A DNA stretch of 33,583 bases from a virus (Duplodnaviria > Heunggongvirae > Uroviricota > Caudoviricetes): IMG/VR virus record IMGVR_UViG_2684622669_000021, positions 1 through 33,583 of that record. One strand, written 5' to 3'. The notes under the pieces were generated by a model. The model was not told the origin of the DNA. It did not search any database and worked only from the letters and a program-made list of their open reading frames with translations. Made by a program: the position numbers and the translations under genes. Each line of letters starts with the position of its first letter. The first letter of the stretch is position 1. Below are positions 8,235 through 26,391 of this stretch, one piece after another.

Positions 8235-8698
8235 TATTTTCTCTCCATGTGAAATCTGTGGAAATTAAGACCAAGAGCACCATAAGGCGCGGCTTCTTCA
8301 AGCCTGAATCCAAGCCAGTGCAGCCATGCTTTGGCAACATGGTTTCGCTCGTCGACGTAGTTTTCCAGGCGCGGATAAACTGCCAGCATCTGCTGCAATA
8401 CAGGGCGGCAGTGGCGCAGAAATGTCTTCTGATATTTTTCAATACGGCTGGTCCCGACCAGCCAGGGCGTACCATTGCCACCGATCATTGACGCCGGAGA
8501 TACGCCAAACATGGTTACCAGTTCTCCGTTCGCGAACCCTGACCAGGCCATAGTCGCAGTGCGCAGACCAACACGCAGCGCATCTTCGGTAGTCATCAGC
8601 GATACCGCATACAGTTCGTCAATATCAGCCTGACGAACATCCGGCAAAATCATCTGAAGATGCTCTTCGGTAGCGGGAATAATTTGAACATCGATCAT
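8234..8698 (-). CDS. Virion-associated protein (154 aa), gp13-like by position
   Basis: TGATG overlap with the upstream gene. Compact 154-aa ORF within the coupled operon. Confidence 0.35.
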   Translation of the reverse strand: MIDVQIIPATEEHLQMILPDVRQADIDELYAVSLMTTEDALRVGLRTATMAWSGFANGELVTMFGVSPASMIGGNGTPWLVGTSRIEKYQKTFLRHCRPVLQQMLAVYPRLENYVDERNHVAKAWLHWLGFRLEEAAPYGALGLNFHRFHMERK

Positions 8699-11169: not shown

Positions 11170-11774
11170 CAGGACAACCTCGCAATGGTAAACTCATCAA
11201 CCGGTGGCTGTGGTTCCTGTGATTCATTCTGGCTATGCGAGCCAGCACTAAGAATCACGCGATTGTACATATTGAGGGCAAACGTACCGAGGTCTGCATT
11301 CCCAGTCAGCGCCATGTTAATAGCTGCCGCAAGACGCCAGGCCAGCGCCTCCATAAAAATGGCATCAAACATGTTCACATCTGTAACGCGAGAGACATAC
11401 TTGAGCCATGCCTGCGGCTGGTCTGTGTAGATCAATTTTCCTGTTCCGTTGGTGTCTGCACCAACTTCGTACTGAACGCGCATTGCTGCTGTTGGATTAC
11501 GTACACCAGGAAGCATAATTTCAGTAATGCGCAGACAATCGGACGGGTACTGGTACGCATATTCCCAGTCAGGCGGTGGATTGCTCGTATCTGCAAGCTC
11601 CACGCGTTTGGTAGCAAAGTTCCAGTCAAAATCAGAAAGAACAGCATCACGGCAGGCCTCAAAGTGCAGCGAACATTCCCCCGCTTCCTTGCTGGCTTCC
11701 GTCAGGCTGTTAATGCTGCGGCTGTTGCCAATATTGGACAGCGCACGATTGCAGATCTCTACTACAGAGGCCAT
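11169..11774 (-). CDS. Tail tubular protein A-like (adaptor/gatekeeper) protein, 201 aa
   Basis: 201 aa. The N-terminal pattern ...ICNRALSNIGNSRSINSLTEASKEAGEC...DFDWNF resembles the T7 gp11 N-terminus (...VNDILASIGEPPVSTLEGD...RGWTF). Start overlaps the upstream stop. Confidence 0.45.
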   Translation of the reverse strand: MASVVEICNRALSNIGNSRSINSLTEASKEAGECSLHFEACRDAVLSDFDWNFATKRVELADTSNPPPDWEYAYQYPSDCLRITEIMLPGVRNPTAAMRVQYEVGADTNGTGKLIYTDQPQAWLKYVSRVTDVNMFDAIFMEALAWRLAAAINMALTGNADLGTFALNMYNRVILSAGSHSQNESQEPQPPVDEFTIARLS

Positions 11775-12103
11775 TACTCCCCCCCATTGCCGTACAGAGT
11801 TTCAGCCGCTGATTTTTCTACATCCCCGGAAACAGGAGCGATCGCCATATCAGTGATCTGCAGATCGGCGCTGCGATTAACACCATCGTCAGTTTCTCTG
11901 GCAGACAGGCCTCGAATAACAGCCTTTGCAGTTATCATCACTTCTGTTCCGACGCCCTGAGGTTGCGCCTTCAGCTTATTCAATGTGTCGTTATTCAGCG
12001 TGATGCACAGCCCCCACGGGTATTCATCGCGAGTTCTGGTTTCTCCGCTCTCATCCTGGTAGCTGTCAGTGCCGGTTTTGAGGTTTACGAGTTCCATATA
12101 CAC
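11774..12103 (-). CDS. Small head/neck protein (109 aa), function unknown
   Basis: AGGAG RBS 6 nt upstream of the ATG at 12103. Lies between the capsid and tail-tubular genes. Confidence 0.5.
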   Translation of the reverse strand: MYMELVNLKTGTDSYQDESGETRTRDEYPWGLCITLNNDTLNKLKAQPQGVGTEVMITAKAVIRGLSARETDDGVNRSADLQITDMAIAPVSGDVEKSAAETLYGNGGE

Positions 12104-12147
12104 TCCTGCAATAAAGGGGCCGAAGCCCCTTGTCTGATTCGCGAGGC

Positions 12148-12483
12148 TTACACGCCCAGTTCTTTACGCTTATCTGCGATCTTCTCGCGGAGCGTTTCTG
12201 CTTTGGCGTTATGGTGTGGCTTCTCGTTAAAGAGCAATTCGTACTCTTCACGGAGCTTATCCAGTTCACCATCATCTGACGCATCGTTGATGATTTTGGT
12301 GCTGGTTGCTGCCATTGACACCTTTCCTGCAACTTTTGCTTTTGCCTGTCTGGCTGCATCGTTAACAGGTTCCAGTGCGCTACCAGGCTCACCTTCGTAT
12401 TCGATTTCTGCTCCCTCCGGCCACAGTGTGTTATGGATATGAGAGAGGCGCAGAACGCGGTATCTTGGTTTCTCACCAGACAT
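12148..12483 (-). CDS. Small charged head-associated protein (111 aa), function unknown
   Basis: Start placed at the ATG at 12481-12483, preceded by AAGGTGA. Lys/Glu-rich helical protein. The overlapping track ORF 12066..12476 in another frame is treated as spurious. Confidence 0.5.
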   Translation of the reverse strand: MSGEKPRYRVLRLSHIHNTLWPEGAEIEYEGEPGSALEPVNDAARQAKAKVAGKVSMAATSTKIINDASDDGELDKLREEYELLFNEKPHHNAKAETLREKIADKRKELGV

Positions 12484-12493
12484 CGATATCACC

Positions 12494-12931
12494 TTAACCA
12501 GTTATTTTTGAGCGGATCGGGTACGGTGTATTGGCATCAACATCCAGACTGATACCCGCAGTGAATTTGCCGGCCGTTAGTGGGCCAGTTGCGACGGAGT
12601 AGTTAACACGCAAATATCGCTGAACACCGGCAGGCACCTTTGCAGAGACAACTCGTTTACCTGCTGTCAGAGTGGCCTTTGCCAGTGCGCCACTATCATA
12701 AATAGTGGTCCAAGAGCTGTTATTCTCACTCGTCTGCAACTGGATGTTTACAGTTGCCTCACCACTTGCCGTGGCGGCTTCGTTAACCAGCGCCCAAAAC
12801 TCAAGCGGGTAACCCACGCCGATATCGCGACGGTTTCCATCAATTGGGCCGAGATCGATTACGTCAGTAGAAGCCGCGGTATCAGTTACCGCCTGTGCTT
12901 CGGAGAACATCAACAGTTTGTCGGTGATCAT
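12494..12931 (-). CDS. Putative capsid decoration/accessory protein (145 aa)
   Basis: GGAGAAAG RBS. Ser/Thr/Ala/Gly-rich composition typical of beta-rich capsid accessory proteins. Immediately downstream of the major capsid gene. Confidence 0.45.
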   Translation of the reverse strand: MITDKLLMFSEAQAVTDTAASTDVIDLGPIDGNRRDIGVGYPLEFWALVNEAATASGEATVNIQLQTSENNSSWTTIYDSGALAKATLTAGKRVVSAKVPAGVQRYLRVNYSVATGPLTAGKFTAGISLDVDANTPYPIRSKITG

Positions 12932-12982
12932 CTTCTTTCTCCATTAGTGGGTCTGTTACGACCCACAGGTTAATAACAGGCG

Positions 12983-13969
12983 TTACACCACGCGGGCTTC
13001 TGTTTCCAGAAGCGCATCAGTTTCACGGATTGGTACACCACGGAATGAAGTCCACCACTCGCCTTCAGTCTCTTTTACGCTGATAGCCAGAGATGTTTTC
13101 TCCAGAGACTGCAGATCAAGAGCCTGGCCTACAGTGCGGTTCATGTAGAACACCGGGCGGCCCATGCCACGGTTTGGAATGCGATGCAGTGCTTTAACCA
13201 TCAACTTCGCAATATTTGCGGCAGAGGAAGGTTCTGAAAGATTGCTGACATCGATGTTTGCAATGCGAACAACATAACGCCAGTCACGCAGAACAAGTCC
13301 GTTGTCCCATTTGTAATGGGTGCGATAGCCTTCGTACTTGCCGCCATTAGCATCTTCCAGTGTCACCTGGCCTTTATCTTCCATCTGAATGCCAGCCTTC
13401 TGCCCTTTCGGGAAGATGCCATGCACGGTGTTTTCTCCCCACACTACTAACCAGATTGAGGTGTTATCTGTACCCGTGCCACCAGCATCAATGATGTTCT
13501 GAGCATTACCCGCAGACAGGCTGGAATAGCGGGAGGACAGTCCCATAAACTGCTGAGGGTTAACGCTGGAATCACCATAAAACAGCGTCTGCGCCATCTG
13601 CTGATTCATCGCTTCAATAAATGCGCGGTCTTCAGACAGGCGGAATTCGGCGGTATTACCGTTCAGATCAGCCAGTGACTTATCGACTTCAGCATAGGTT
13701 TCCAGCATGCCAACGGAGTCGGTGACCTGCACTGTGGTTGATTTGCTTGGCTGTACGCCATAGTTCAGCAAACGCCAGGTAGCTGAAGGTAAACCAGAAC
13801 GAATGGTGGTTCGGTGTCCGGTAGGAAGGTTCCCTTCGACAAAAGGCATATCCTGAAGGATCGGGTTAGTTTGACCGAGAAGCTCGATAATCTTATCGAC
13901 TTTCCCGTTTTGATCGACGCGCTTACCCCAGTCAGCCAGCGTTAGCGCAGTTAAGCCTTTAACAGCCAT
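12983..13969 (-). CDS. Major capsid protein (328 aa)
   Basis: Position right after portal and scaffold. Size typical of HK97-fold capsid proteins. Strong RBS (AGAGAGGAAATAACA-ATG). Confidence 0.7.
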   Translation of the reverse strand: MAVKGLTALTLADWGKRVDQNGKVDKIIELLGQTNPILQDMPFVEGNLPTGHRTTIRSGLPSATWRLLNYGVQPSKSTTVQVTDSVGMLETYAEVDKSLADLNGNTAEFRLSEDRAFIEAMNQQMAQTLFYGDSSVNPQQFMGLSSRYSSLSAGNAQNIIDAGGTGTDNTSIWLVVWGENTVHGIFPKGQKAGIQMEDKGQVTLEDANGGKYEGYRTHYKWDNGLVLRDWRYVVRIANIDVSNLSEPSSAANIAKLMVKALHRIPNRGMGRPVFYMNRTVGQALDLQSLEKTSLAISVKETEGEWWTSFRGVPIRETDALLETEARVV

Positions 13970-13983
13970 TGTTATTTCCTCTC

Positions 13984-14679
13984 TTATTTGCCATAGAGCA
14001 CTTCGGCCGCACTACGCTGGCCTTCATTACCACCGGTGACCATGCCATCTTCAGACATCGCCTTTCCGATTTTCACGAACGTTTTGACCAGATCAGGGTG
14101 ATTACCCAGTCCGGTTGTGTTCAGATATTCTTTGAGTTCAGGTGTCCCGAACTGGTCAAGCGCACGCTGTGCGGCGCTAAGGTTAGAAATCAACTTGTCG
14201 CCACCGATTTCTTTGTCAGCTTTTACATCAGCAGCCCACTGCTCGGTCGTTTTCTGCCAGGCTTCTGCCTGACGCTGCTGCACACCTACCAGAATCTTCG
14301 GATAAGCATCAACCAGCTTTTGCGCTTGCTCGTTGGTCAGGTTAAGTTCTCGCGCTACCGGCTCGAATTCCTTCAACGCATCTGTATCCAGCTCTACGCC
14401 TTCGGCAGCATGAAATTGGTACTTCTCCGGCGCACCATCTGGTTTATCGCCGTCCTTTTTTTCATCCTGCTTATCGTTTTCAAGCTTTTTGTCATCAGCA
14501 GGTTTATCGCCATCAGCAACAGGTTGTGGCTTATCACCTTCCTGTTGTGATGGATCACCAACTGGAGCAGGGTTATCACCTGCAGGCGCTGACGGTTCTG
14601 ACGCAGCCGGAGCTGCTCCACCATCGACTGGTTGCTCATTGCAAAGACGGCGATACAGCAAACGCTCAAATAAATTCAT
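13984..14679 (-). CDS. Scaffolding protein (231 aa)
   Basis: Lies between portal and capsid. Acidic Pro/Asp/Lys-rich low-complexity N-terminus (PAASEPSAPAGDNPAPVGD...DGDKPADDKKLENDKQDEKKDGDKPDG) followed by a helical domain. Start reassigned to the ATG at 14677-14679 after an AGGAG RBS. Confidence 0.65.
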   Translation of the reverse strand: MNLFERLLYRRLCNEQPVDGGAAPAASEPSAPAGDNPAPVGDPSQQEGDKPQPVADGDKPADDKKLENDKQDEKKDGDKPDGAPEKYQFHAAEGVELDTDALKEFEPVARELNLTNEQAQKLVDAYPKILVGVQQRQAEAWQKTTEQWAADVKADKEIGGDKLISNLSAAQRALDQFGTPELKEYLNTTGLGNHPDLVKTFVKIGKAMSEDGMVTGGNEGQRSAAEVLYGK

Positions 14680-14681
14680 GA

Positions 14682-14978
14682 TCACTCCTGTTCACTGGCC
14701 TCTTTGGCCATCTTCAAATACTGTTCAGGGCAATGCGCCATAACGCGCTGAAACAGTTCCAGCGCCAGATTGCGTTGCCCCTCATTAAATGCCATTGCCA
14801 TAGCGTCCATCGGTGAGATAGCGGAAAACACACGGCCTTTCTCCAGCACCGACCAGACAACGCGACGCCCCTGTTCACTGCTCATGACAAAGCGAATGTC
14901 ATCAATTTCACGCTGTGCCATGTCACGTTGCTTACGGGCGTTTTCTTCTTTCAGTTGATCGTCTTCGTAATCTGTCAT
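14682..14978 (-). CDS. Small head-assembly-associated protein (98 aa), function unknown
   Basis: ATGA overlap with the portal stop. Acidic N-terminus. Confidence 0.5.
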   Translation of the reverse strand: MTDYEDDQLKEENARKQRDMAQREIDDIRFVMSSEQGRRVVWSVLEKGRVFSAISPMDAMAMAFNEGQRNLALELFQRVMAHCPEQYLKMAKEASEQE

Positions 14979-16654
14979 TGTGATTGCCCACCCTGACCAC
15001 TAACTGCATTCACCATAGCTGACAAAACACTCGGATCCGAAGTTTTAGCTTCGCTTAGCGTCTTGGCACCCTGTGCCGCCGCCATCCCCATCGCCATCAT
15101 TTGTTGCTGCTGTTGCTGCTGTGCCCGTTGCTGGCGAGCCTGCTCAACCTGTTCCTGCGGAACAATGACGGTTGGAGACACTCCGGACATATCAGCGAAT
15201 GCATCGATCGCCTGATCAACGTTGAGTTTGTCGAGAGCTTCTGGTTTCGCTTGCGCAAGTTGACCAATGAAGTTAACCGTGGACGCCAGACTGGACAGGC
15301 CGATAGACTTCTGCGCCTGAGCCATGACGGAAATGTATTCGACCTTCAGGGGCATGCCTTCCATCGCGTCAGGCGGTGGCGGAAGCATGTTTTTACGCAC
15401 CATCATCGAGAAAGCGCGGTCAATGAGAGGATTAAGACATTCATCGTTCAGACGCTCCAGAACCGGCCCCAACATCAGAAGTTTTTCTTCTTTCATTTCG
15501 ATCACCGCTTCAACAGGCATCGAGCGGGTATTGATGTTCTGTAACATCATGAACAGATCGACAAAGTAGGCGCTGTTAATGATTTGACGAGTGTCCTGAA
15601 TGTCTGCCACCAAATCTGCTGTACTGGGGTTAACCAGATAAGCAGGCCTGAAACCATCCTGACCAGTAATCTGATCGATATACGTGATGTCGCCAGGAAG
15701 AAGGGAGGCACGCTGATTCTTGAGGGAAGTCGGAGCAACCATCGGCGGATTGGTGGCTTTATCAATCAACTGCGACTTGCGCTTCTGGAGAAGCTGCAAT
15801 GCCTTAACAGGTCCAAGCGCCAGCATGCCCGGGCATGATGATCCATAAACATCTTCGCCGTTAACTTCCCAGCGCGGAGCCATAATTGGAAACTCATCGA
15901 ATCCGGATTCACGTAACAACTTGTCGTTGTCGCCGCCAACCTCGTAATAAACCGATTTGAATGGCTTGTTCTTGCTATCCAGCTTCGATGTATCGCGGTC
16001 AATGTTCGGGTAAACCGAATGCATAACTTCAATCCACTTCTCGTAGGTGCCGCTTTCCCACATGCTTTTTACGGATTCGCTAACGTTATTTAGCCCGAAC
16101 TCCTGAACAAGCTGACGAACAGTCATAGAGAACTTGCGAAAACAGGTGTCCACACTGCCACGAGGTGAGTTAGCCAGGTAGTAACTGCCTATCGGGAATG
16201 GCATTGTGCGAATGATGTCCTCGTCATCCTCCAGCACCGCCATTGCACCAGTGCTGTATGTACCGAGGCTTCCGTATAACTGCGGCAGCGACTGGTAGAG
16301 ATTCGACTTATTGAACATATCGTTCATGCGGTTCTGCACCGCCTCAAGCCACAACTTAACAGGTCCATAATCCATCATTTCAGGATCTGGCGTAGCCAGG
16401 CGAAACCACGGACGCGCGGGGCTTGTGATGCCTGACATCATGCCGCTGGCGAGAGTGCGCGCCGCCATAGTCCCGGTCGAATCAATAATGCGTGTATTGC
16501 GCCGATCGTTACGGTTGACCTCAGAAGTCAGAAAGCGGGAACCACGCGGGTTGATGTAATCACTCAACTCGCGCCAGTGCGGCTCGAACGACTGACGCTC
16601 GCTTTCAAGTTGTGCGAACTGTTTGTTCAATCGCTCTTTAGTTGTTTCCGCCAT
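14975..16654 (-). CDS. Portal (head-to-tail connector) protein, 559 aa
   Basis: First large gene of the head module. C-terminal Gln/Ala/Met-rich tail (...QRAQQQQQQQMMAMGMAAAQGAKTL...) resembles the T7 gp8 connector C-terminus. AGGAGT RBS. Confidence 0.8.
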   Translation of the reverse strand: MAETTKERLNKQFAQLESERQSFEPHWRELSDYINPRGSRFLTSEVNRNDRRNTRIIDSTGTMAARTLASGMMSGITSPARPWFRLATPDPEMMDYGPVKLWLEAVQNRMNDMFNKSNLYQSLPQLYGSLGTYSTGAMAVLEDDEDIIRTMPFPIGSYYLANSPRGSVDTCFRKFSMTVRQLVQEFGLNNVSESVKSMWESGTYEKWIEVMHSVYPNIDRDTSKLDSKNKPFKSVYYEVGGDNDKLLRESGFDEFPIMAPRWEVNGEDVYGSSCPGMLALGPVKALQLLQKRKSQLIDKATNPPMVAPTSLKNQRASLLPGDITYIDQITGQDGFRPAYLVNPSTADLVADIQDTRQIINSAYFVDLFMMLQNINTRSMPVEAVIEMKEEKLLMLGPVLERLNDECLNPLIDRAFSMMVRKNMLPPPPDAMEGMPLKVEYISVMAQAQKSIGLSSLASTVNFIGQLAQAKPEALDKLNVDQAIDAFADMSGVSPTVIVPQEQVEQARQQRAQQQQQQQMMAMGMAAAQGAKTLSEAKTSDPSVLSAMVNAVSGQGGQSQ

Positions 16655-16668
16655 TTCAATGACTCCTG

Positions 16669-16875
16669 TTACTGACCAAGCAGCGTTTTACCGCTGGTAT
16701 TAGCGGTTGATGTGTCGCCCTGAGAACCGGTAAGCAGCGTAGAACTACGACCAGCAGCAGCGCGACGGCGACGTGTTTCTTCGTCGCGGGCATCAACAAC
16801 GGCGGCATCCTGCTCCTGTGGTGCTGCCTGAACTTCTGGTGTTGCAGGCACTGATGGTGAGCTACCCATGCACAT
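16669..16875 (-). CDS. Small low-complexity protein (68 aa) upstream of portal
   Basis: GGAG RBS before the ATG at 16875. Ala/Pro/Gln/Arg-rich composition gives weak coding support. Confidence 0.35.
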   Translation of the reverse strand: MCMGSSPSVPATPEVQAAPQEQDAAVVDARDEETRRRRAAAGRSSTLLTGSQGDTSTANTSGKTLLGQ

Positions 16876-17301
16876 ATCAATGACTCCGTACGCAATTAAA
16901 TTATTACCAATTTAACCATATATGATTTATTTATCGTAGACAGTTGACATTTAACGCACGAATTATTACCTTTCAGGTAACTAAAGAGTTCATTCCGGTT
17001 ACTAACCTGACTGGCTTGTCGTTAAATTGAACAGGTGGAGTGAGCTTTTATTTTGAGCAGTACGGCGTATGGCACATGCGCCGATAGCGGTCTGGATACG
17101 TTTAAGGGGCACCCTCCCTTGCTCGGGCAAACGAACCAGGTAGCCGGAATGTGCAAGTCGAGCGGTTTTATTCCGCGCACAGGGTTCACCATCCCGGCGA
17201 TTCGGTGTGACACCTCGGAAGAGACGAGGGTACAACGATGAGAGCATTTATGGAGCCGCGATAAAGTGTGGTGCCTTAACAGGCTAAGTGCTCTCAGCGT
17301 T

Positions 17302-17378
17302 GTGGCATTAGCTCAGTTGGACAGAGCAACCGCCTTCTAAGCGGTTGGTCGCAGGTTCGAATCCTGCATGCCGCGCCA
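17302..17378 (+). tRNA. tRNA-Arg, anticodon UCU (reads AGA), with encoded CCA
   Basis: Manual cloverleaf: acceptor GTGGCAT/ATGCCGC (one G-U pair); D-stem GCTC/GAGC; anticodon stem ACCGC/GCGGT with loop CTTCTAA (U33, anticodon TCT, A37); variable loop TGGTC; T-arm GCAGG-TTCGAAT-CCTGC; discriminator G; CCA. Related to but distinct from chromosomal argU. Confidence 0.9.
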
Positions 17379-17421
17379 GAATCACGCCTAAGGACCGTGA
17401 TGCCAGAAGTTCCAGGGGCTT

Positions 17422-17464
17422 GGCGGTGATGGTTTCCCTTGAAGGACTATCACCGCCCTTTTTA
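17422..17464 (+). terminator. Intrinsic terminator downstream of the tRNA
   Basis: Stem GGCGGTGAT...ATCACCGCC (9 bp) followed by CTTTTT. Confidence 0.7.
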
Positions 17465-17541
17465 CAGCAGGACGCCATTGCGATGACTTCATGCTGTAAA
17501 CCAGTACAGCCACGGAAGGCATAACTCATAGCTTCCAGTTC

Positions 17542-17566
17542 GCCCGGTTCGCCGGGCATTTTTTTA
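17542..17566 (+). terminator. Second intrinsic terminator
   Basis: Hairpin CCCGG-TTCG-CCGGG followed by CATTTTTTT. Confidence 0.7.
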
Positions 17567-17635
17567 CTTGAATTTTACCCTCAACAAACCAACATAGAAC
17601 TTGGCATTTGCCATAACTTTCACAAGGAGTCAGCC

Positions 17636-17935
17636 ATGAATGGTTGGAATAGAAAAAAGACTCAATATTTAGCTGAGTGCATCCACGAACACGAAAAAGC
17701 CGACGGAGTAACCTACGATCCTAACGGTATGGTTAGCTACTGGAACACAAAATATAACCTCGTTCCTGCTGAACAGTTGCCAGCATTACAAAATCAGGTA
17801 TCTCTCGAATTAGAAGCTCTACGCGGTGCTGAGACTAACCATGTAACAATTAGCAACATTGGTGCCGCTAAGTTTGGATTCGACTCTGTAATAGGGAATC
17901 ATCTACCTAACTTCGATCCGGAGCCAGTTAAGTAA
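17636..17935 (+). CDS. Orphan moron protein (99 aa), unknown function, opposite strand to the late operon
   Basis: Strong RBS (AAGGAGTCAGCC-ATG). More AT-rich than the flanks. Ends 11 nt from the convergent terL stop. No family recognised from MNGWNRKKTQYLAECIHEHEKADGVTYDPNGMVSYWNTKYN... Confidence 0.6.
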   Translation: MNGWNRKKTQYLAECIHEHEKADGVTYDPNGMVSYWNTKYNLVPAEQLPALQNQVSLELEALRGAETNHVTISNIGAAKFGFDSVIGNHLPNFDPEPVK

Positions 17936-17946
17936 TTTGCTGACCA

Positions 17947-19422
17947 TTATGCATAAGGGTCATAATCCGTTATGGCCCTTCCCTGCTGGCTTTGCTGTCC
18001 TGGTATATTTATGCGTTTCGAGACCGGGAAAGCAAACGTCAGCAGTAGCGCATCGCCTTTACCAGGAGAACGCCCAAGACGCTCTTTGATATCTTCCTTC
18101 GGTTCGATAACGATTTTACCGTCCACACGAACTTTGTACTCTGCCGCCGACAGGTCGTCTGCAGTTTCCTGGTCATCCAGCATGCCGCCCAGCCTCAGCC
18201 ATGTCTTACATGAGTTGAACATCTCCCCACGCTTGTTAAGCATCTGCGGGTCAGTGGACGCACCGCTGAACGGAACAAGTTGCCATGTACGTCCCCAGCC
18301 ATCACCGATTGACTTCAAACCGGTTCCGTAACCGAAGTCGATGAACACCGCGTCAGCCTGGTACTGGTCTTCAAAGTCAGCGATACGCTTCGCCATAATC
18401 AGATCGTCGGTGGTCTTGTTGCCGGTCCACAGCACCTTACTGTGCAGCCCCTGCCGCAGGTATATCACCGCGTCATCAACACCGGAGTATGCAGGGTCAA
18501 CGCCGATTATCACCGGAGCATGTGCCACCTGCGCAGCAGTTACCACCCGTTTCATTGCCTCGTCAGTAAGACCGGTAGGGATAAACTGCAATTCAGATGC
18601 ATCAGGGAATATACCGCGCACACGGATTTTAACGAAGTCGCTGTCTTCCCCGTAGTCATCAACCCATTTCTGCAACTGCTGTTTGTTGGTGCCTTCCACC
18701 GTCCGGCTGTCAATCTGCGCAGTTTTCCAGCGGTGTTTATATTTGCGGAAACATTCGCGGAAACGTCCGGTATTACGCGTCGGGTTTCCGAACGCCACCC
18801 AGATAATCTCAGTGTCTTCGTCCGTTAGCGCACCCTCGGCAACTTCCCACACCAGATCCGCAATGTTCGACGCTTCATCGAATACCACGATGATGCGTTT
18901 GCGCTCGTTGTGTAGTCCGGCGAATGCCTCAGTGTTGTGCTCAGACCAGGGGATTGCGTCAGCTCGCCACCGCTTGTCGTGCCCAGGATCATTGCTGTAC
19001 ATCGCGGTAGCGGTACAGGTAAACCAGTCTTTCGTGATAGCAAGGTTCGACCACTTGATAATTTCCGGCCAGGTCTTCGTTCGTAGCTGGTTGTCGGTGT
19101 TGGCGGTCACCACGACCTTACAATCCTCGCAAGTGGACATGCCCCAGTTGATGAGCATTGAGATGAATGCGGATTTACCAATACCGTGACCAGAAGCACG
19201 TGCCAGCATAAGCGGCTGATAACGCGTCTCTGGATTCTGCAGGTGATCACGTATCTCTCGGAACGCATCGGCCTGCCACTGACGTGGACCGGTAGCATGT
19301 GCCAGTTCAGTCCCCTCTTCCCCCCAAGGGAACGCATAGAGGGCATAGCCAAGCGGATCGTGAGTGAACCCTGCAATATCTTCGATTAACTGCTCTTCAG
19401 GAGATAACGCTGCATCTGTCAC
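17947..19422 (-). CDS. Terminase large subunit (491 aa)
   Basis: Walker A-like ARASGHGIGKS, Walker B-like IIVVFDEAS, and a C-terminal nuclease-type acidic segment (IGVDPAYSG...). ATGA overlap with terS. Confidence 0.85.
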   Translation of the reverse strand: MTDAALSPEEQLIEDIAGFTHDPLGYALYAFPWGEEGTELAHATGPRQWQADAFREIRDHLQNPETRYQPLMLARASGHGIGKSAFISMLINWGMSTCEDCKVVVTANTDNQLRTKTWPEIIKWSNLAITKDWFTCTATAMYSNDPGHDKRWRADAIPWSEHNTEAFAGLHNERKRIIVVFDEASNIADLVWEVAEGALTDEDTEIIWVAFGNPTRNTGRFRECFRKYKHRWKTAQIDSRTVEGTNKQQLQKWVDDYGEDSDFVKIRVRGIFPDASELQFIPTGLTDEAMKRVVTAAQVAHAPVIIGVDPAYSGVDDAVIYLRQGLHSKVLWTGNKTTDDLIMAKRIADFEDQYQADAVFIDFGYGTGLKSIGDGWGRTWQLVPFSGASTDPQMLNKRGEMFNSCKTWLRLGGMLDDQETADDLSAAEYKVRVDGKIVIEPKEDIKERLGRSPGKGDALLLTFAFPVSKRINIPGQQSQQGRAITDYDPYA

Positions 19423-20015
19423 TGATTACCATCCTGACGTTCTTTGAGTCGCTTCCTAGCTGCCGCTATGCGATCAGCAATTGTCACATTCACATTAACA
19501 TCCAAGCGTTCTTTGAATGCGTTGACGTCGACGTGCTTACCAATCAGTTCTAGGTTCTTCACCTTGTCAGGCCATTTAATTTTTTTGAGGATTGTCTCTA
19601 TCGAGTCCTCGTTCATGTTCATGATGGTCGATGACAGATCAAAGCCGCTAAGCGTAGTGCGCCATATTTTCGGCCACTCGCGGATTGGCTTAAGGCTCCC
19701 ATCGTCGTTGAGGATATCAATCACGTCCATCTGGTCGATCTCCACCAGGCGCATGAGAACGTAATCAGCACTGACGCGCATTCGTTTGTTGCGCTCCTCC
19801 ATCAACTCGGCAATCCGTTTTTGAATGCGTTCATCGCGCATCATGACACTGGCTTTAACTGCCGCTGTATTTGGGGAGAATCCTGCGTTAATCGCAGCCT
19901 GAGTCTGGTTTTCAGGCGTTTTGATGTATGACTGGCAATAAGCCTCCTGCATTGCTGTGAGCGGCTTAAATTGCGTTGATTTGCGTTTATAGGTTTTAGG
20001 TTCAGCAGGCATCAT
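19419..20015 (-). CDS. Terminase small subunit (198 aa)
   Basis: N-terminal signature ...LTAMQEAYCQSYIKTPENQTQAAINAGFSPNTAAVKASVMMRDERIQKRIAEL matches the terminase small-subunit family pattern. Start reassigned to an internal ATG; the track ORF carries a 26-aa extension. Confidence 0.8.
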   Translation of the reverse strand: MMPAEPKTYKRKSTQFKPLTAMQEAYCQSYIKTPENQTQAAINAGFSPNTAAVKASVMMRDERIQKRIAELMEERNKRMRVSADYVLMRLVEIDQMDVIDILNDDGSLKPIREWPKIWRTTLSGFDLSSTIMNMNEDSIETILKKIKWPDKVKNLELIGKHVDVNAFKERLDVNVNVTIADRIAAARKRLKERQDGNQ

Positions 20016-20133
20016 AACCACCCTGGTAATTGTTACCGTTGTGGTAATAGTAACATGCAAAATAAAGCCGCCATAGTTGGCGACAGTATTCAAAACCCAT
20101 CAAATTCATCATGCATAATCTACTCGTGACATG

Positions 20134-20475
20134 TCACACTATTAATTTCGTTTCATGCCAGCCTTTAGTCACCCAGCATTGCGAGTCACCATTACACGGG
20201 CATGAATTAACTGGAACTCTCTCGCCGCACTTACCGCAACATTTTCTGCTGATCGATTTTATACGCCCGCGCACGCGTGCATCATCCTGGCGAATCAGTA
20301 AAGCTATATACTCACCAAATTCGTAAGGCGCACGCCCGGGGCGACGCGTGGCACAGTTACGCTCCAGCATTTCAATTTCCTGAGCATCAAGCACAATTTC
20401 CAGCTTACGCACACCAGATGCAGCTTGTCTGGCTCTCTGAGCGGCTTTGCGCTCTGCTGCTGATTTAGCCATCAA
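20134..20475 (-). CDS. Hypothetical protein (113 aa) with a C-terminal Cys-rich, Zn-ribbon-like motif
   Basis: C-terminal RKCCGKCGERVPVNSCPCNGDSQC and a basic helical N-terminus. Last gene before terS. Confidence 0.5.
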   Translation of the reverse strand: MMAKSAAERKAAQRARQAASGVRKLEIVLDAQEIEMLERNCATRRPGRAPYEFGEYIALLIRQDDARVRGRIKSISRKCCGKCGERVPVNSCPCNGDSQCWVTKGWHETKLIV

Positions 20476-20746
20476 TATTCACCTTTATCGCGTACACCTT
20501 TACCGGTTTATCGCCGAAGTGCGGATGTGTGATTGTCTTGATTTCATATCCGTCATACGGAACATCAATTCTGCGGCTGGAATCGTCGCGCTTCGGATAT
20601 CCCTTTGTGATAATCAGTCGGTCATATTCGCGGAACATAATTCGCTTATTCCAGTAGTCATTACACAGGCGATACTCTTCCGTTTTCTCTCCGCGAATCA
20701 TGGCATCGAAGTATTCACCTTTAACGGCAAGTTGCAGGTTAGCCAC
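20465..20746 (-). CDS. Small ASCH/PUA-like (DUF3850-type) domain protein (93 aa)
   Basis: MANLQLAVKGEYFDAMIRGEKTEEYR... resembles the small phage ASCH-like family. Recalled, not searched. Confidence 0.45.
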   Translation of the reverse strand: MANLQLAVKGEYFDAMIRGEKTEEYRLCNDYWNKRIMFREYDRLIITKGYPKRDDSSRRIDVPYDGYEIKTITHPHFGDKPVKVYAIKVNIDG

Positions 20747-21650
20747 GGTTAACCTCCTGTGGCGGTTCTGGTAGCGGCATCCAGTGGGTTACCTCTTTGA
20801 GATACAGGTCTTCGCCATCACCGTCATCCCAAGTGGGCTTGCCATCATTAAACCAGTCGCCATATACGCCGACCTGAGTGTTGGGGATGTTTGGTGGGTA
20901 GTTGTTTTTAAAGTCAGCTGCTAACACATAGCATTGTCGCTCTCCCATTTCAGGCATTCGCTCACTACAGCTTATCCAACTATCCGGAGTTACCGGAGAG
21001 TTGCCAGCCACTCTACGCAAAACAGCCTTAACCGCCTCAATACGGTCATCATCGTAACTTTCCGCCGTATCTATGCGGTCGAGCATGATGATGGCGTTAT
21101 CAATATCAGGATTGCCAGTCCACTCATTACTGCGATTGGATTCGGCAGCCTGGTTACCAGATGCGGGTTGATTGTCGGCCTTACCCAGTCTGTCGTCGCT
21201 GCATGAATGCCCTTCCAGCCAGGCCAATGCTTGTCGCATGAAATACGCAATATGTTTGCCGTGGTAATCGTCTTCATCGATGTGAAAAGCGATACTGCGG
21301 ATGTATTCAATTGCGTTTTCGATGGCCTCTAACGCTATCGGCGCTGGCGGAGTGGTATATAATTTTCGACATTTGTATATCCAACCGGCATGGTCAGGCG
21401 TGTCTGTAAAGCGCAAATCGTCTTCGTAGCACTCACGACTACGTTCTTTCCATTCCGTCCACGGAACACCGCTATTCCAGGTGGGGCGAGTGCAGGACTG
21501 ATACAGAACAGGCTCTGCTTCCAGCGATGCCAGCACAATTCGTGCCAGTTCTTCCGCTTCTTCTGCTGGCAGTACAACGTTGCTACCAGGTCCGTATGTT
21601 TCGCGCCACTGCTTGATTGTCAGCAGTCGCTCTTTGGTAATAGTGGTCAT
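20739..21650 (-). CDS. DUF551-domain phage protein (303 aa)
   Basis: C-terminal ...WISCSERMPEMGERQCYVLAAD...GDWFNDGKPTWDDGDGEDLYLKEVTHWMPLPEPP is the DUF551-type signature common in lambdoid prophages. ATGA overlap with the upstream gene. Confidence 0.6.
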   Translation of the reverse strand: MTTITKERLLTIKQWRETYGPGSNVVLPAEEAEELARIVLASLEAEPVLYQSCTRPTWNSGVPWTEWKERSRECYEDDLRFTDTPDHAGWIYKCRKLYTTPPAPIALEAIENAIEYIRSIAFHIDEDDYHGKHIAYFMRQALAWLEGHSCSDDRLGKADNQPASGNQAAESNRSNEWTGNPDIDNAIIMLDRIDTAESYDDDRIEAVKAVLRRVAGNSPVTPDSWISCSERMPEMGERQCYVLAADFKNNYPPNIPNTQVGVYGDWFNDGKPTWDDGDGEDLYLKEVTHWMPLPEPPQEVNRG

Positions 21651-21856
21651 GTGTTAATCCTCAAAACTTTATGCCCGGGCGCAAAAGCACGCGTTTTGTC
21701 TTTGCTTATTCGCCAGCCATCCTTGCGCGCCTCTTTTGCACAGCCAGCCCATGACGTACCGATATATTCACCGAAGTCTGGCGTTTGATATTTACCATTT
21801 GTACACTGGCGACAATCACAGTAGAGATGCATGGTGTAACTTGCGGCAATAGCCAT
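21647..21856 (-). CDS. Small Cys-containing protein (69 aa), unknown function
   Basis: ATG at 21854-21856 preceded by AAGGAGAG. Sequence MAIAASYTMHLYCDCRQCTNGKYQTPDFGEYIGTSWAGCAKEARKDG... The track ORF 21647..22018 extends into the upstream gene. Confidence 0.5.
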   Translation of the reverse strand: MAIAASYTMHLYCDCRQCTNGKYQTPDFGEYIGTSWAGCAKEARKDGWRISKDKTRAFAPGHKVLRINT

Positions 21857-21857
21857 A

Positions 21858-22628
21858 TCACTCTCCTTTGATGCGAATACCAGCAGCGCGCTCGGCTTCA
21901 CTTTGTTCCCAAAACCACTTGTGAAGCGCCATAAGCTTTTCGTCAATCGGTGCATATTTGCGATTAAAGTAGGCCTGAGCATCTTTCTCAGATTCGTCCG
22001 GTAATTCGCCAGGGCCAAACAGTGTGTTATAAATCCATGCTAGTCCGCTCTTAGCGTCGCCAGTTGCCTGCCATTCGATAATGGCAGCCTGCATGACCAG
22101 AATGTTTTTCCCGATTAATAGGTCCAGTTCTTTGTACCGGTTGCGGATGTATGCATTCTCGCTTTGTAATTTTGCGTTGCGCTTTTCTGAGGCTTCAAGT
22201 AACGCCTGCTTATCGCGTAGCGCTTCTTCCAGTTCAGCAACATGGCATTCACTATCAATAAGGTTGTTCTCTGCTGCTTCAAGCTCAACACGCAGCTTCC
22301 CAACCGTAAGCGCAATCTCCTCGTTCTCCTGATCGCGGCGTTTTATGTATTGCTGGTTTCTTTCCCGTTCATCCAGTAGTGCCAGCACGGTAGCCGGGTT
22401 AGCCTCTGCTATGAATTCAGCGTTTGCATAAGCCTGAGCATCTGTTTCAACCAGGCAGTTAACATGACATTCTGCAATCACGCCACCGGGTTCTCCTTTC
22501 CATTTTTGACAAACAAAAACTCCTGTTATATTCCCATGCTGATTGACCGATGTATGCCCTACGATGTAGCTCCCTTTCGTTGCCTTTTCTGCCGCTTCAC
22601 GCAGTGCCTGATAGTTAATTTTGCTCAC
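21858..22628 (-). CDS. ead/Ea22-like family protein, paralogue 1 (256 aa)
   Basis: GTG start after AAGGAGGCAACCA. N-terminus [18 protein letters not shown]...; central coiled coil. GTGA overlap with the upstream paralogue. Confidence 0.7.
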   Translation of the reverse strand: MSKINYQALREAAEKATKGSYIVGHTSVNQHGNITGVFVCQKWKGEPGGVIAECHVNCLVETDAQAYANAEFIAEANPATVLALLDERERNQQYIKRRDQENEEIALTVGKLRVELEAAENNLIDSECHVAELEEALRDKQALLEASEKRNAKLQSENAYIRNRYKELDLLIGKNILVMQAAIIEWQATGDAKSGLAWIYNTLFGPGELPDESEKDAQAYFNRKYAPIDEKLMALHKWFWEQSEAERAAGIRIKGE

Positions 22629-22653
22629 TGGTTGCCTCCTTTGCGAAGCTGTT
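22621..22653. repeat. Junction repeat (copy 1) shared by the Ea22-like paralogues: RBS + GTG start + stop of the upstream gene
   Basis: TTGCTCACTGGTTGCCTCCTTTGCGAAGCTGTT is identical at 22621-22653 and 23205-23237. Confidence 0.8.
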
Positions 22654-23212
22654 CAGCAATACTTACGCATATCTCTGCGCCTCTAATCAGCCCCGGAACG
22701 TTCTTGTTTGGCCCAACTTCACCATCAACAAAATCAATCATCGCGTTACGAGCCATATCCACCCCCTGCGCACGTACTTCAGCCAGGAGAGCGTCGGTAG
22801 CTGGGGTTTCCGTGAAGTTGTCCTCCCAACCGTAGTACTCCTGACGACAGAAGTTATTAAATTCCTTCTCCGACTGTTTAAGCGCCGCATTCTCCACTGC
22901 CAGCGCCGCGCACTTGGCCTCAAGAGCTGCAACCACTTCCTGATGGTCTTTGTACTTAACGTATGAGCCGGAGATGTCATCACCTTCGGTGTTTAGCCAT
23001 GCGTCATTGCAATTCACTGCGTAGGTTCTGATGCTGATGCTCTCCCGCCCCTGACAGACGCCAGGCCAGTCAATAAAGTATCCGCAATGCCTACCCTCAG
23101 ACGTGCGCGCAGGATAAATGCCGTTATGACCCGGCAAAATATATGCTACCCATTCATCTTGCGTTGCCTGTTCCGCCGCCTCGCGCAGTTCTTGATAGTC
23201 AATCTTGCTCAC
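22625..23212 (-). CDS. ead/Ea22-like family protein, paralogue 2 (195 aa)
   Basis: GTG start at 23210-23212 after AAGGAGG. N-terminus SKIDYQELREAAEQ...; C-terminus ...ETPATDALLAEVRAQ...AEQLRKGGNQ shared with paralogues 3 and 4. Confidence 0.7.
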   Translation of the reverse strand: MSKIDYQELREAAEQATQDEWVAYILPGHNGIYPARTSEGRHCGYFIDWPGVCQGRESISIRTYAVNCNDAWLNTEGDDISGSYVKYKDHQEVVAALEAKCAALAVENAALKQSEKEFNNFCRQEYYGWEDNFTETPATDALLAEVRAQGVDMARNAMIDFVDGEVGPNKNVPGLIRGAEICVSIAEQLRKGGNQ

Positions 23213-23237
23213 TGGTTGCCTCCTTTGCGAAGCTGTT
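23205..23237. repeat. Junction repeat (copy 2)
   Basis: Identical 33-mer to 22621-22653. Confidence 0.8.
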
Positions 23238-23892
23238 CCGCACAATGCAGCAGGGCGTCCGTCGCTTCTTTCACCGTAACGATGTCGCCATCGTCCAGCC
23301 CGACAACCGTCGCGTCCTTAACGAACACCGAGCAAAGGTCATTAAACGCCTGCGCCCGCACTTCAGCCAGGAAAGCGTCGGTGGCTGGCGTTTCCCGTGA
23401 ACGGTAAGACCAAACAATGTCGTCTGTTTCACTGGGTTCTTCATGAGAGCAATTTGGGCAGACAGCAGTACAACCAGCATGATCTTCTATGAGCATCTTC
23501 AGCCACGAGTTCTCCTCCGCCAGCGTCACGCGACTGGCCTCCAGTTCTGCTACGCGCTGTTTTGCAGCATCCAGTTCAATCGACAATTTTTCCAACTGCT
23601 CTTTATGCTTTTTATATTCCTGATATGCGTGCCAAGACTGACCTTTGCGCACACTATCAGTGATATCAGTAATCTGTTCTGGTGTTAGCGTGGTCAGTGG
23701 CTGTGATGGGAAAATAAGCACTTTCCCGGAATCCCAATCAAAACCAGCGTGAATTGACTGAACCTCAACTGAAGGTGTTGAACCAATGCTGCCAGGCGAA
23801 TGAACAACGATTGTTACATCCATATCGCGACGATGGCTGTGGTTGTTGGACAAAATACGATTCACCAACTCAGAAAATTTGGAAAATTTCAT
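23209..23892 (-). CDS. ead/Ea22-like C-terminal module fused to a distinct N-terminal domain (227 aa)
   Basis: ATG start. N-terminus MKFSKFSELVNRILSNNHSHRRDMDVTIVVHSPGSIG... is unrelated to the SKINYQ N-termini. C-terminus ...[15 protein letters not shown]...AEQLRKGGNQ is shared with the other paralogues. Confidence 0.65.
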   Translation of the reverse strand: MKFSKFSELVNRILSNNHSHRRDMDVTIVVHSPGSIGSTPSVEVQSIHAGFDWDSGKVLIFPSQPLTTLTPEQITDITDSVRKGQSWHAYQEYKKHKEQLEKLSIELDAAKQRVAELEASRVTLAEENSWLKMLIEDHAGCTAVCPNCSHEEPSETDDIVWSYRSRETPATDAFLAEVRAQAFNDLCSVFVKDATVVGLDDGDIVTVKEATDALLHCAEQLRKGGNQ

Positions 23893-24179
23893 GCTGATTC
23901 CCCTTTCTCTGCTCTCTCCTGTCGGAACATCACTATCATCAGGTCGCCTTTTGTCGCTATCCTCGCTGTTGTGCCTGGTTCAATGCTGCCAAGTTCAAAT
24001 GCGTCATAGAACGCTTCTAATGCCTTCTGGCGTAGTTCCTGTTTGCGCCGTTTTTTCCACTGTTTCAGGAAAATGGAACCCAGCCATCGCCATGTACGGG
24101 ACATGATGTAAAGCCAACCGAGAAGTGCCAGACCGGTATTTAGGGCCGTATCGAGCGTTATCGTGGTGTCGATATTCAC
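23889..24179 (-). CDS. Small predicted single-pass membrane protein (96 aa) inside the Ea22-like array
   Basis: GTG start after AAGGAAGCAGCCA, overlapping the upstream stop. Hydrophobic segment ALNTGLALLGWLYIMSRTWRWLGSIF followed by a basic stretch KQWKKRRKQELRQK. Confidence 0.55.
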   Translation of the reverse strand: MNIDTTITLDTALNTGLALLGWLYIMSRTWRWLGSIFLKQWKKRRKQELRQKALEAFYDAFELGSIEPGTTARIATKGDLMIVMFRQERAEKGESA

Positions 24180-24877
24180 TGGCTGCTTCCTTTGCGAATC
24201 TGTTCCGCCCATTCTTCAAGGGATTTCTCCGCATATTCACCAGACAGGCCATCAATCGGATGCGCTTCATTAGCCAACTCTTCTTTCGCTGACAAAATCA
24301 TGCGTGTAACGTCGAAAACTTCACGCAAAGACTTATTGATAAATCCGTGATTGAACGCAGCAGCAAGACGGCTGGCGGTATAGTTAATCCCCTCGTTGCG
24401 TGCTTCCGCACGAATTTCAGCCAGAAAAGCATCGGTAGCTGGAGTTTCGCTGTGGTGTAGGGCATCGTTGATAATCATTGCAGCAACACCAGCCTGCCCT
24501 GCATCCGTGACCGACACATGATCAAGAGTTACAGCCATTGCGTGTTTCAGCCCGGCGTTCTCTGCCACCAGAGCCGCGAGCTTAGTCTCAAGCGGTGCTA
24601 TTCGGCACATAGCATCAATATTTGTGTCCTCCAGGCGCTTAATTTCACCAAGTAGCTCCAGTGCAACCTTTGGGTTGAATGCGGCAATATAACGAGCGTT
24701 GTTCTCTGCGTTTTTCAGTCCATCAAAGCCGGTCCATTTGATAACATCTTCACATCGTTTATCACCGGGCGTATGCACAGCATACGTACCTGTACCCGTC
24801 GAAATAAACGCGACCCATTCGCCCTGTGTTGCCTGTTTTGCTATCTCACGTAGTGCCTGATAGTTAATTTTGCTCAC
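24176..24877 (-). CDS. ead/Ea22-like family protein, paralogue 4 (233 aa)
   Basis: GTG start at 24875-24877 after AGGAGGCAACCA. N-terminus [23 protein letters not shown]...; conserved ...[15 protein letters not shown]... segment. Confidence 0.7.
24177..24204. repeat. Junction repeat (copy 3, diverged)
   Basis: CACTGGCTGCTTCCTTTGCGAATCTGTT, a diverged copy of the same junction. Confidence 0.6.
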
Positions 24878-25616
24878 TGGTTGCCTCCTGGCAAAGCTGG
24901 GCGACAATATCGCGATATTTATTCAGCTCCCGCAGCGCGACACAGACTCGCTCCCATTTCCGGATATCACTTTTCGCCCGACGCAGTTCGCGGTTTGCCT
25001 GTCGCAGCGATGGCAGAACCAGATTATCCACTCGATTCTCAAGCGGCTGCACAATGTCTGCCACAGTTTCTGTTTTAATATCTTCCTGTGTTGCAGCTTC
25101 CTGTCCCGGTAACGCAACACCTGCTGGTTGAGGAAAGGCCTTACCATCACTTTCCGTTACCAGCGCGGCTTTCGGCTCTGCTGGTAAATTATCGCCCGGC
25201 ATGCAGTAACGAAATTTACCGTTCTGATTAACGCGTGCCAGCCGCCCCGTTGCGGTTACCACCGCCAGCGTGGAAGCAACCTTGCGAGTACTGACACCGA
25301 ACTTACCCGCCAGTTCCTCACACGTTTTAGCCCCATCCTGACCGATAAACTCAATCATCATGTCTGCGGTAACTTTTTGTTCGACCTCCCCGGTCAGCAT
25401 ATCCTGTGCTTCAGATTTTACTGGCCGCTCTTCGGTTACCCGGGATTCACCTTCGCCAGCCAGAGACCAGGTGTGACCAGTTTTATCAACAACGCCATTT
25501 CTTTTGAGTTCCCACAGCTCGTTGACAGCCTCTTCACGACTGATATCAAGTCGCGCAGCCAGTTCTACCGACGTGGCTTTTCCCATTGCTTTCAGTGCGT
25601 CAAATACAGTTTCCAT
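24864..25616 (-). CDS. Winged-helix DNA-binding protein (250 aa) with two HTH-like modules
   Basis: ATG at 25614-25616 after GGGAGGAAA. Two HTH-like segments: [28 protein letters not shown] and [31 protein letters not shown]. Recalled as a common prophage family of unknown function. Confidence 0.55.
24871..24900. repeat. Junction repeat (copy 4, diverged)
   Basis: TGCTCACTGGTTGCCTCCTGGCAAAGCTGG, a diverged copy of the same junction. Confidence 0.6.
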
Positions 25617-25638
25617 TAAAATTTCCTCCCGGTAAAAA

Positions 25639-26385
25639 TCACTTCGCAATTCCTGGCTGGACGACATTCGGACGCCAGCTCTCCCAGTTAAAATTCACCC
25701 ATCGCCCGCCGTTCATGGTCATGCGATCCATAATCCGCTCGCCGAGCAATGTTTTCATGGCCTCATAGTTCAGGTTTGTCAGCATCCCCACGCTGCGCAT
25801 CGACGCTGTCCGGCGATCAACAATCTGGTGCAGCACCACCTGCTCGTTTTTTGTCTCGCGCTGAATGCCAATTTCATCAAGAACCAGCAGATCCACTTGG
25901 CACAGTTCCCGCAAAAATTTTTCGCCTGATTGCCCGTCGTCATAGCTGGCGTGTAGAGCACTCATGACATCAGCCACGGTAACCACAATCACTGTCTGGC
26001 CATCTTTCAGCAGGCGATTCCCGATAGCCGCCGCCAGATGGTTTTTTCCGGTACCAGGTTTTCCGCTGAACGCAAAATTTGTACACCCGGTCATCAGTTC
26101 ATCAGCGATAGATTTCGCCTGGTTCAACGCGTATCGCTGACCGTCGTTCTGCACCTGGTAATTCGCAAACGAGCATTTGCGGTGCAATGGCTGGATGCCA
26201 GAGCGATTCAGAATTTTTTCCACCCGCAACTGACGATTCTGACGGTTGATCTCCTCACAACGTTTCTGGCCTTCGGAAAGTTGCCACTCGCGCCACTCCG
26301 CTACCGTTTTGAATGGGGCGGTTACATGTGGCGGGGCCAGTCTGCGGATACGTTCAAGAATGCCTCCTGCCGCAATATTTTTCAT
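25639..26385 (-). CDS. DnaC-like replicative helicase loader (AAA+ ATPase), 248 aa
   Basis: Walker [16 protein letters not shown] and Walker [10 protein letters not shown]. Lies right after the replisome-organiser gene. Confidence 0.85.
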
Positions 26386-26391
26386 GGTCAG

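Follow-up and report, generated by a model that had tools for sequence, protein, structure and literature searches.

What is the small open reading frame (ORF) that lies between a tRNA gene and the large terminase gene of a phiV10/epsilon15-like (Uetakevirus) prophage, and what might its 99-residue product do? We examined it in the window, by which we mean the whole 33,583-nucleotide stretch of IMG/VR virus record IMGVR_UViG_2684622669_000021. The minus strand of the window carries a cro-like gene (YdaS type), the replication genes, the small terminase gene terS (19419-20093), the large terminase gene terL, a 68-aa gene, the portal gene (14975-16654), and the structural genes; the plus strand carries a cI-like HTH_3 repressor gene (28231-28641), an exonuclease gene, and the integrase gene, together with two features set within the late region, a tRNA-Arg(TCT) gene and the ORF itself. 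The features on which the argument turns are as follows.

17302-17378, plus strand: tRNA-Arg, anticodon TCT (UCU as RNA), the conserved left neighbor of the slot (ARAGORN; Rfam tRNA, 69 bits)
17422-17457, plus strand: terminator-like hairpin 1, a 14-bp stem followed by CTTTTT, 3' of the tRNA (scan; RNA fold -22.8 kcal/mol, z -3.1)
17542-17565, plus strand: terminator-like hairpin 2, GCCCGG-TTCG-CCGGGC followed by T7 (scan; fold -12.7 kcal/mol, z -3.3)
17567-17945, plus strand: variable cassette (moron), 379 bp (pairwise blastn against phiV10 and TL-2011b)
17602-17613, no strand: palindrome TGGCATTTGCCA, 12 bp, just 5' of the ribosome-binding site (alignment with lambdoid copies)
17609-17617, plus strand: weak promoter candidate, extended -10-like TGcCATAAC with a poor -35 (hexamer scan)
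17624-17629, plus strand: Shine-Dalgarno sequence AAGGAG, 6 nt 5' of the ATG (sequence inspection)
17636-17935, plus strand: coding sequence, 99 aa, ATG start (ORF list and translation)
17947-19422, minus strand: large terminase gene terL, the conserved right neighbor, converging on the ORF (ORF list and homologous-locus annotation)
17955-17980, plus strand: hairpin AAGGGTCATAA-TCCG-TTATGGCCCTT, within the last terL codons and 20 nt past the ORF stop (fold -18.6 kcal/mol, z -1.7)

A sequence-only reading of the window had placed the ORF at these coordinates and on this strand, with its own ribosome-binding site and with neither a helix-turn-helix (HTH) motif nor a transmembrane segment, and all of this was borne out; the translation of 17636-17935 matched the protein that it quoted exactly. 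The product is soluble and mildly acidic (GRAVY -0.56, pI 5.4, net charge -4), and a search of it for a hydrophobic stretch, transmembrane segment, signal peptide, or lipobox found none.

Homologues share about 56-78% identity with the protein and are conserved over its full length across four unrelated phage backbones. Comparison with two copies of 76-78% identity, L011 and L005, gave a non-synonymous difference of 0.12 per site, while synonymous difference, at ~0.9 per site, is saturated; dN/dS was 0.16 against a 58% copy (L004) and 0.23 between the two lambdoid copies L011 and L005. We conclude that the ORF is a genuine gene under purifying selection, and we are confident that it is a real accessory gene of the cassette. 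A chance or decaying ORF within an intergenic spacer, with no function at all, would fit the rarity of the sequence, which occurs in 1 of 5,426 complete E. coli genomes (that of HB37) and gave no blastn or tblastn match among 50,697 phage records, as well as the absence of any known domain from the protein. However, strong purifying selection with saturated synonymous sites effectively refutes this explanation, and the full-length conservation in unrelated phages, the good ribosome-binding site, and a confidently modeled helical core (pLDDT ~90 for residues 11-60) all argue against it; we regard it as exceedingly improbable.

The protein has no counterpart in the family collections that we searched. 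Pfam gave no match at E ≤ 10 for the protein itself, and scattered chance matches only across 25 relatives; PHROGs gave one chance match (E = 0.28), NCBIfam none for the family, and PADLOC a single chance match (E = 0.046) in 1 of 12 family members, with no significant defense-system hidden Markov model. A sequence-profile search of the PDB had a best E value of 0.098, and a Foldseek comparison of the predicted structure with BFVD had a best E value of 0.16, so that the remote-homology check proposed in the sequence-only reading pointed to no known family or fold. The same reading had called the protein an orphan with no recognizable family; this holds for Pfam, PHROGs, NCBIfam, PADLOC, and the PDB, but the protein does belong to a small family of its own, which comprises ~25 clusters when grouped at 90% identity. 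Among 5.8 billion proteins searched there were four relatives only: P0002 (78% identity), P0003 (76%), P0004 (58%), and a fragment. The family drew 10 matches when 1.84 billion representative proteins were scanned exhaustively with HMMER, and a profile search gave 23 clusters. Named members come from E. coli, Klebsiella, and Raoultella, none with a Pfam domain. Two copies are present in IMG/VR, one identical and the other from the Klebsiella clade, and the GTDB species representatives contain no copy. The identical protein was found in 172 blocks of public assemblies, and among the matches listed 10 of 10 places were the same slot in mosaic prophages. All family members sit in temperate phages, always in accessory positions. 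The protein represents a new, very small family that fills a known niche, the phage accessory or moron cassette. A search of the literature for the accession and for the tRNA-Arg/terL slot found nothing specific.

Three assignments were considered and rejected. An HTH transcription factor or Aca-type regulator was set aside for lack of a recognizable HTH and of a basic DNA-binding surface; a membrane superinfection-exclusion protein of the SieA/SieB/Imm/Cor type, because the protein has no hydrophobic stretch and a GRAVY of -0.56; and a known anti-phage defense protein, because PADLOC-DB returned only the chance match noted above.

The sequence-only reading had described the position of the ORF as hotspot-like, and comparison with related prophages showed a genuine variable hotspot, in which the flanks are conserved and the contents are swapped or absent. 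In pairwise blastn, phiV10 and TL-2011b both match the left flank at ~98% identity as far as 17566, and the right flank, from 17946, is 98% identical to TL-2011b and 87% identical to phiV10; the 379 bp in between are unrelated in content to either phage. Hairpin 2 is the last element held in common with the two phages before the cassette, flank homology ending at 17565/17566, and on the other side the stop codons of the ORF and the convergent terL are 11 nt apart. The cassette has a GC content of ~43%, compared with 52-55% in terL and portal and 0.497 across the window. The tRNA-Arg gene is kept in phiV10, in TL-2011b, and in ~518 E. coli genomes. The survey of prophage neighborhoods that had been suggested bore out the same picture: 518 of the 5,426 complete E. 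coli genomes match the slot query, mostly on both flanks, and the 99-aa gene is found in one of them. Since it is absent from >99% of otherwise similar Uetakevirus prophages, the gene is dispensable.

We sampled 57 evenly spaced two-flank matches; the slot has at least 8 allele classes. A "Gp49 family protein" occupies the slot in at least 24 of the 57 sampled prophages. Same-strand genes fill it in phiV10 (PhiV10p03, 123 aa) and TL-2011b (115 aa), further alleles are single plus-strand genes of 272, 233, 201, 139, and 61 aa, and an empty allele also exists. PhiV10p03 matched the Pfam family PF13876 (Phage_gp49_66) with E = 6.3e-35 and 120 bits (cut-off, 27) and the Acb4 chain PDB 9e4w_A with E = 0.011. 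PF13876 is the Acb4 family, tetrameric sponges that sequester 3'3'-cGAMP and so disable CBASS (10.1101/2024.12.30.630793), and it is likewise treated as Acb4 in a second report (10.1101/2025.07.12.664507). The commonest allele of the slot therefore belongs to a family with a proven counter-defense founder. The remaining slot alleles, including the 115-aa gene of TL-2011b, gave no informative Pfam, PADLOC, or PDB match, only coiled-coil noise.

We considered whether the 99-aa protein is itself a diverged Acb4 and rejected this: hhalign gave a probability of 0.1% against PhiV10p03, the sole aligned stretch (GFDSVIGN against NFDAEIGR) being insignificant, PF13876 matched none of the 25 relatives at E ≤ 10, and the PDB profile search gave no match to Acb4 (9E4W).

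Several other observations concern the slot and its surroundings. The window and the HB37 prophage (L003) match only over 8229-20790, at 96-97% identity, a segment running from the structural genes through the terminase region; positions 1-8228 and 20791-33583, which hold the early, immunity, and integration regions, differ, so the window is not the HB37 prophage. The confinement of the match to this segment indicates that the 99-aa gene moves together with the structural module among mosaic prophages. In a further assembly (L033, GCA_902708365.2), positions 1035-4300 hold an expanded form of the slot with tRNA-Thr, tRNA-Ser, a 78-aa gene and a 275-aa Band_7/SPFH gene, tRNA-Met, tRNA-Arg, and the identical 99-aa gene, and the slot is thus able to grow into a multigene cargo island. 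An 83-aa ORF at 17308-17559 on the minus strand is antisense to tRNA-Arg and to both terminator hairpins; its equivalents are annotated as hypothetical in phiV10 (PhiV10p04) and TL-2011b (F365_gp24) and omitted from the RefSeq annotation of HB37, and it is probably a spurious call. The non-coding stretch 17062-17223, 5' of tRNA-Arg, shares ~81% identity with an unannotated region that P1 and P7 carry close to their tRNA genes, and the tRNA-Thr beside a Klebsiella homologue (L012, 7751-7826) is ~88-90% identical to the tRNA-Thr of P1 and P7; from these alignments, tRNA modules appear to be common to P1-like, Uetakevirus, and lambdoid phages.

Outside this slot, the family occurs in several settings. 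A more distant epsilon15-like phage (L004) carries its copy in the same terL/portal slot, where 4 nt of the gene are shared with terL and the gene is preceded by a terminator and by a consensus TATAAT 35 nt upstream. In the nin region of lambdoid prophages (L005-10) the gene is flanked by a PAPS-reductase-like gene and a serine recombinase gene and runs antisense to these neighbors. Copies in the lambdoid Q-to-lysis region are co-oriented with the late genes and show three layouts: Q, a 63-aa gene, an N6/N4 methylase, tRNA-Thr, the family member, an NMT1_3 gene, and holin (Klebsiella and Raoultella); Q, the family member, and holin; and Q, the family member, Mom, further genes, and holin. In a P2-like phage the gene converges on the portal gene. 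Some of these lambdoid prophages (L013-15 and L021) have, in addition, an Acb2/Tad1-hairpin gene that separates the lysis genes from the terminase genes. A terminator-like hairpin stands upstream of the gene in the window, in the epsilon15-like copy, and in the lambdoid Q-region copies, and most copies outside the two Uetakevirus slots have one downstream as well, with clear intrinsic terminators after the gene in L005, L012, L021, and L023. We sought allelic partners for the lambdoid-context copies among sequenced phages and found none usable.

Two of these lambdoid settings hold details of their own. In L021 (5776-5875 and 6354-6385), a promoter-like TTGAAT...TAAATA lies directly 3' of Q with a strong terminator ~45 nt further on, and a second strong terminator lies 3' of the family member; in prophages of this type Q-dependent late transcription may begin with the gene, placed between two terminators, the upstream elements being a candidate pR'/tR'. 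In L011 (1717-1756), and also in L005 (6356-6400), a hairpin directly after the stop codon of the homologue resembles the 3' end of terL in the window; the minus strand of L011 reads ...YGPFA-stop there, and terL in the window ends ...YDPYA-stop. Judged by this resemblance, the hairpin may be what remains of the end of a terL gene that came along as the cassette moved out of a Uetakevirus-type slot and into a lambdoid nin region.

The company that the gene keeps in these genomes raises the possibility of an accessory factor for phage development or host takeover with no role in immunity, such as one that modulates transcription, proteolysis, or tRNA metabolism in the host, or one that assists or regulates neighboring DNA-modification genes. 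The gene recurs beside tRNA genes (tRNA-Arg in the window, tRNA-Thr in the Klebsiella prophage L012) and beside DNA-modification genes (the N6/N4 methylase, Mom, and the PAPS-reductase-like gene), and it is the first gene 3' of Q in several prophages. However, its neighbors differ in each context and it occurs without them in the window, L004, and L021; its absence from nearly all similar Uetakevirus prophages makes it dispensable; and the protein lacks an HTH, a zinc finger, and any enzymatic motif, while its net negative charge argues against binding to DNA or other nucleic acid. We consider such a developmental role improbable.

The expression signals around the ORF in the window are sparse. 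Hairpins 1 and 2 both lie between the tRNA and the ORF and should insulate it from tRNA transcription, and the 66 nt between hairpin 2 and the ribosome-binding site hold only the weak extended -10-like element; a sigma-70 scan of 17558-17635 gave no consensus match. The palindrome TGGCATTTGCCA is kept, in the form TGGCA(T/A)(T/A)TGCCA, in the three closest copies of the cassette (the window, L011, and L005), which belong to unrelated phages, and it is absent from distant family members. It shows no notable RNA structure on folding. The exact sequence occurs once in the window, and with one mismatch allowed there were 5 matches against 1.9 expected. The palindrome could be an operator or part of a promoter; an operator that recurs through the prophage was rejected, since the window has no second exact copy. 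The hairpin at 17955-17980 may act as a weak terminator for the cassette, although it lacks a U-tract; in the lambdoid copies, too, the gene is followed by a similar hairpin.

The ORF shares its strand with the cI-like repressor and the integrase, whereas the genes of the cro-like, replication, terminase, and structural functions are on the other strand. Both the tRNA and the Acb4-type slot alleles have the same orientation as the ORF. It had earlier been described as standing in a lysogen-expressed orientation. The strand does agree with that of the repressor, but expression in the lysogen had been read from orientation alone and we found no convincing promoter. Because two hairpins lie upstream, the promoter element is weak, lambdoid copies lie in a late operon, and an Acb4-type gene has the same orientation, lysogenic expression is not established; the Acb4-type gene must act in lytic growth, so orientation alone does not fix the timing of expression.

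If the gene were nevertheless transcribed in the lysogen from a constitutive promoter of its own, its product could be a prophage exclusion or defense factor that, like soluble exclusion factors made of a single protein, blocks a rival phage by binding one of its proteins, to the benefit of host and prophage rather than of an infecting phage. This is the main rival to a counter-defense role in our ranking, and we hold it to be unlikely. It would suit the position of the ORF on the repressor strand and antisense to the late operon, where transcription of the late genes would run against it, a moron-like layout with a terminator-like element on either side, and the Band_7/SPFH gene in the expanded slot of L033. 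One family member, moreover, adjoins the portal gene of a P2-like phage, a position that we take to be a hotspot for anti-phage genes and to be better known for defense than for anti-defense genes. Several findings speak the other way: the commonest allele of the slot is a counter-defense and not a defense family, PADLOC gave no match, most lambdoid copies are co-oriented with the Q-dependent late operon and head it, and the window has no clear promoter. Small exclusion proteins are usually membrane proteins, unlike the soluble 99-aa protein.

We modeled the protein with AlphaFold2 from a 25-sequence alignment (mean pLDDT, 77). Helices were predicted at residues 3-23, 29-40, and 45-67 with pLDDT values of ~88-92; a fourth helix, at residues 74-86, is less certain, and the C-terminal tail is conserved yet loosely predicted. 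The protein is thus predicted to be a three-helix bundle, of about residues 3-67, with a poorly ordered C-terminal segment, and a model built from 4 sequences agreed on the three-helix core. W36, N37, V43, R63, and G87 are invariant in the family, and the nearly invariant residues include R6, A13, Y40, L48, P49, L51, Q54, L57, E58, A61, and D83; in a separate alignment of 12 diverse family sequences K21 was also nearly invariant. We looked for an enzyme-like motif, a metal site, a zinc finger, and an HTH in the protein and found none. Members of the Klebsiella clade carry a low-complexity Pro/Lys/Ala/Gly linker near the C terminus, followed by a conserved "...AIEA" end. Many Klebsiella and Raoultella members (L012-L018, P0011, and P0015-P0023) are annotated with 32-68 extra N-terminal residues that align with nothing; these extensions are likely start-codon miscalls, as a conserved internal "MN" marks the point from which every member can be aligned.

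The reading that we favor, tentatively, is that of a mobile single-gene moron whose product is a soluble protein that works by binding, most probably in counter-defense. The ORF is the one gene carried by a horizontally mobile cassette, and the slot that this cassette occupies is a dedicated variable one. Because its product is a small, soluble, helical protein without a catalytic or metal-binding motif, it would most likely act by stoichiometric binding, neutralizing a host immune pathway by binding a defense protein or, alternatively, forming an oligomer that sequesters a signaling molecule, like Acb4. The binding surface would be formed by the family-conserved R6, K21, W36, N37, Y40, E58, R63, and D83.

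Counter-defense as such we put forward with some reserve. It is favored because the gene is allelic with Acb4; because a single small soluble domain is typical of inhibitors and sponges rather than of defense systems; because its neighbors in other phages are immune-evasion cargo (tRNAs, Mom, methylase, and Acb2/Tad1); and because the lambdoid copies lie in the lytic late operon. Variable accessory genes flanked by conserved phage genes are described as mostly antagonizing host defenses or other viruses (bioRxiv 10.1101/2023.04.06.535777). The other slot alleles are also without informative matches, which makes location weak evidence for a counter-defense role. The P2 portal-side copy counts against the role, as does the lack of a convincing promoter in the window. 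Sponge pockets are positively charged and the protein is acidic overall, which speaks against the sponge form of the proposal. Expression after Q is late for most counter-defense functions, and the lambdoid copies appear to be expressed at that stage.

In its fullest form the proposal is more doubtful: the protein might found a new immune-evasion family confined to temperate phages of Enterobacteriaceae, unrelated in sequence or fold to solved anti-defense proteins, interchangeable with Acb4 in a dedicated counter-defense slot beside phage tRNA genes, and inactivating a host pathway such as CBASS, Thoeris, or a sensor of late proteins. The sequence-only reading had remarked that small proteins in such spots are often inhibitors of host or rival-phage functions. 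With PF13876/Acb4 as the commonest occupant of the slot that suggestion is better grounded than it was, and on sequence evidence the 99-aa protein stands as a candidate inhibitor only.

Should a counter-defense role prove true, the family would be a new and easily testable class of inhibitor, and the Uetakevirus tRNA-Arg/terL slot would be a mine for more; the slot occurs in about one-tenth of complete E. coli genomes, and among its at least 8 allele classes only Acb4 is understood. Should it prove false, the gene is one more phage accessory gene among very many. Orphan accessory genes are common, and this one is a sensible candidate for an anti-defense screen.

Comparison with known systems places the gene as follows. 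The moron concept reportedly goes back to Juhala and Hendrix. The cassette resembles morons, as these are described in PMC3594210, in being a single extra gene between conserved phage operon genes, present or absent among close relatives (518 slots, the gene in 1, and an empty allele), with deviant GC content (0.43 against 0.52-0.55 in the flanking genes) and spread across unrelated phage backbones. Morons are also flanked by terminators; the copy in the window has terminator-like hairpins on its upstream side and the hairpin without a U-tract on its downstream side. The definition of a moron includes a promoter of its own; the copy in the window has only the weak extended -10-like element, whereas L004 has the consensus TATAAT.

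The anti-CRISPR loci of Mu-like Pseudomonas phages hold small acidic orphans with their own expression signals, located among head-morphogenesis genes and with highly variable alleles. The 99-aa ORF is likewise small, acidic orphan cargo whose allele varies between related prophages; unlike those loci, it has no aca-type HTH gene adjacent, and the protein gave no match to solved Acr structures.

Sequestin (PF21825) is a small, all-alpha anti-Thoeris sponge of 60-80 aa (bioRxiv 10.1101/2025.07.12.664507), which illustrates that a tiny helical protein can work as an oligomeric sponge. The 99-aa protein is similar in that it is short, alpha-helical, and stand-alone and occurs in phages and prophages; its family is longer (99-120 aa), shows no fusions to Tad2 or Acb4, and gave no match to PF21825 at E ≤ 10 in 25 members.

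Acb4 differs in fold, with a three-stranded beta core and a tetramer where the 99-aa protein is predicted to be all-helical, and the 99-aa protein does not match the hallmarks of that family, namely a core of the beta-sandwich type, assembly into tetramers, and a nucleotide pocket with positive charge. In setting, however, the two are alike: sister prophages carry the Acb4/PF13876 gene (phiV10p03, "Gp49 family protein") in the identical slot, on the same strand, and with the same spacing, and both proteins are of similar size (~100-120 aa) and are stand-alone soluble proteins, those of the Acb4 type being found in temperate and virulent phages.
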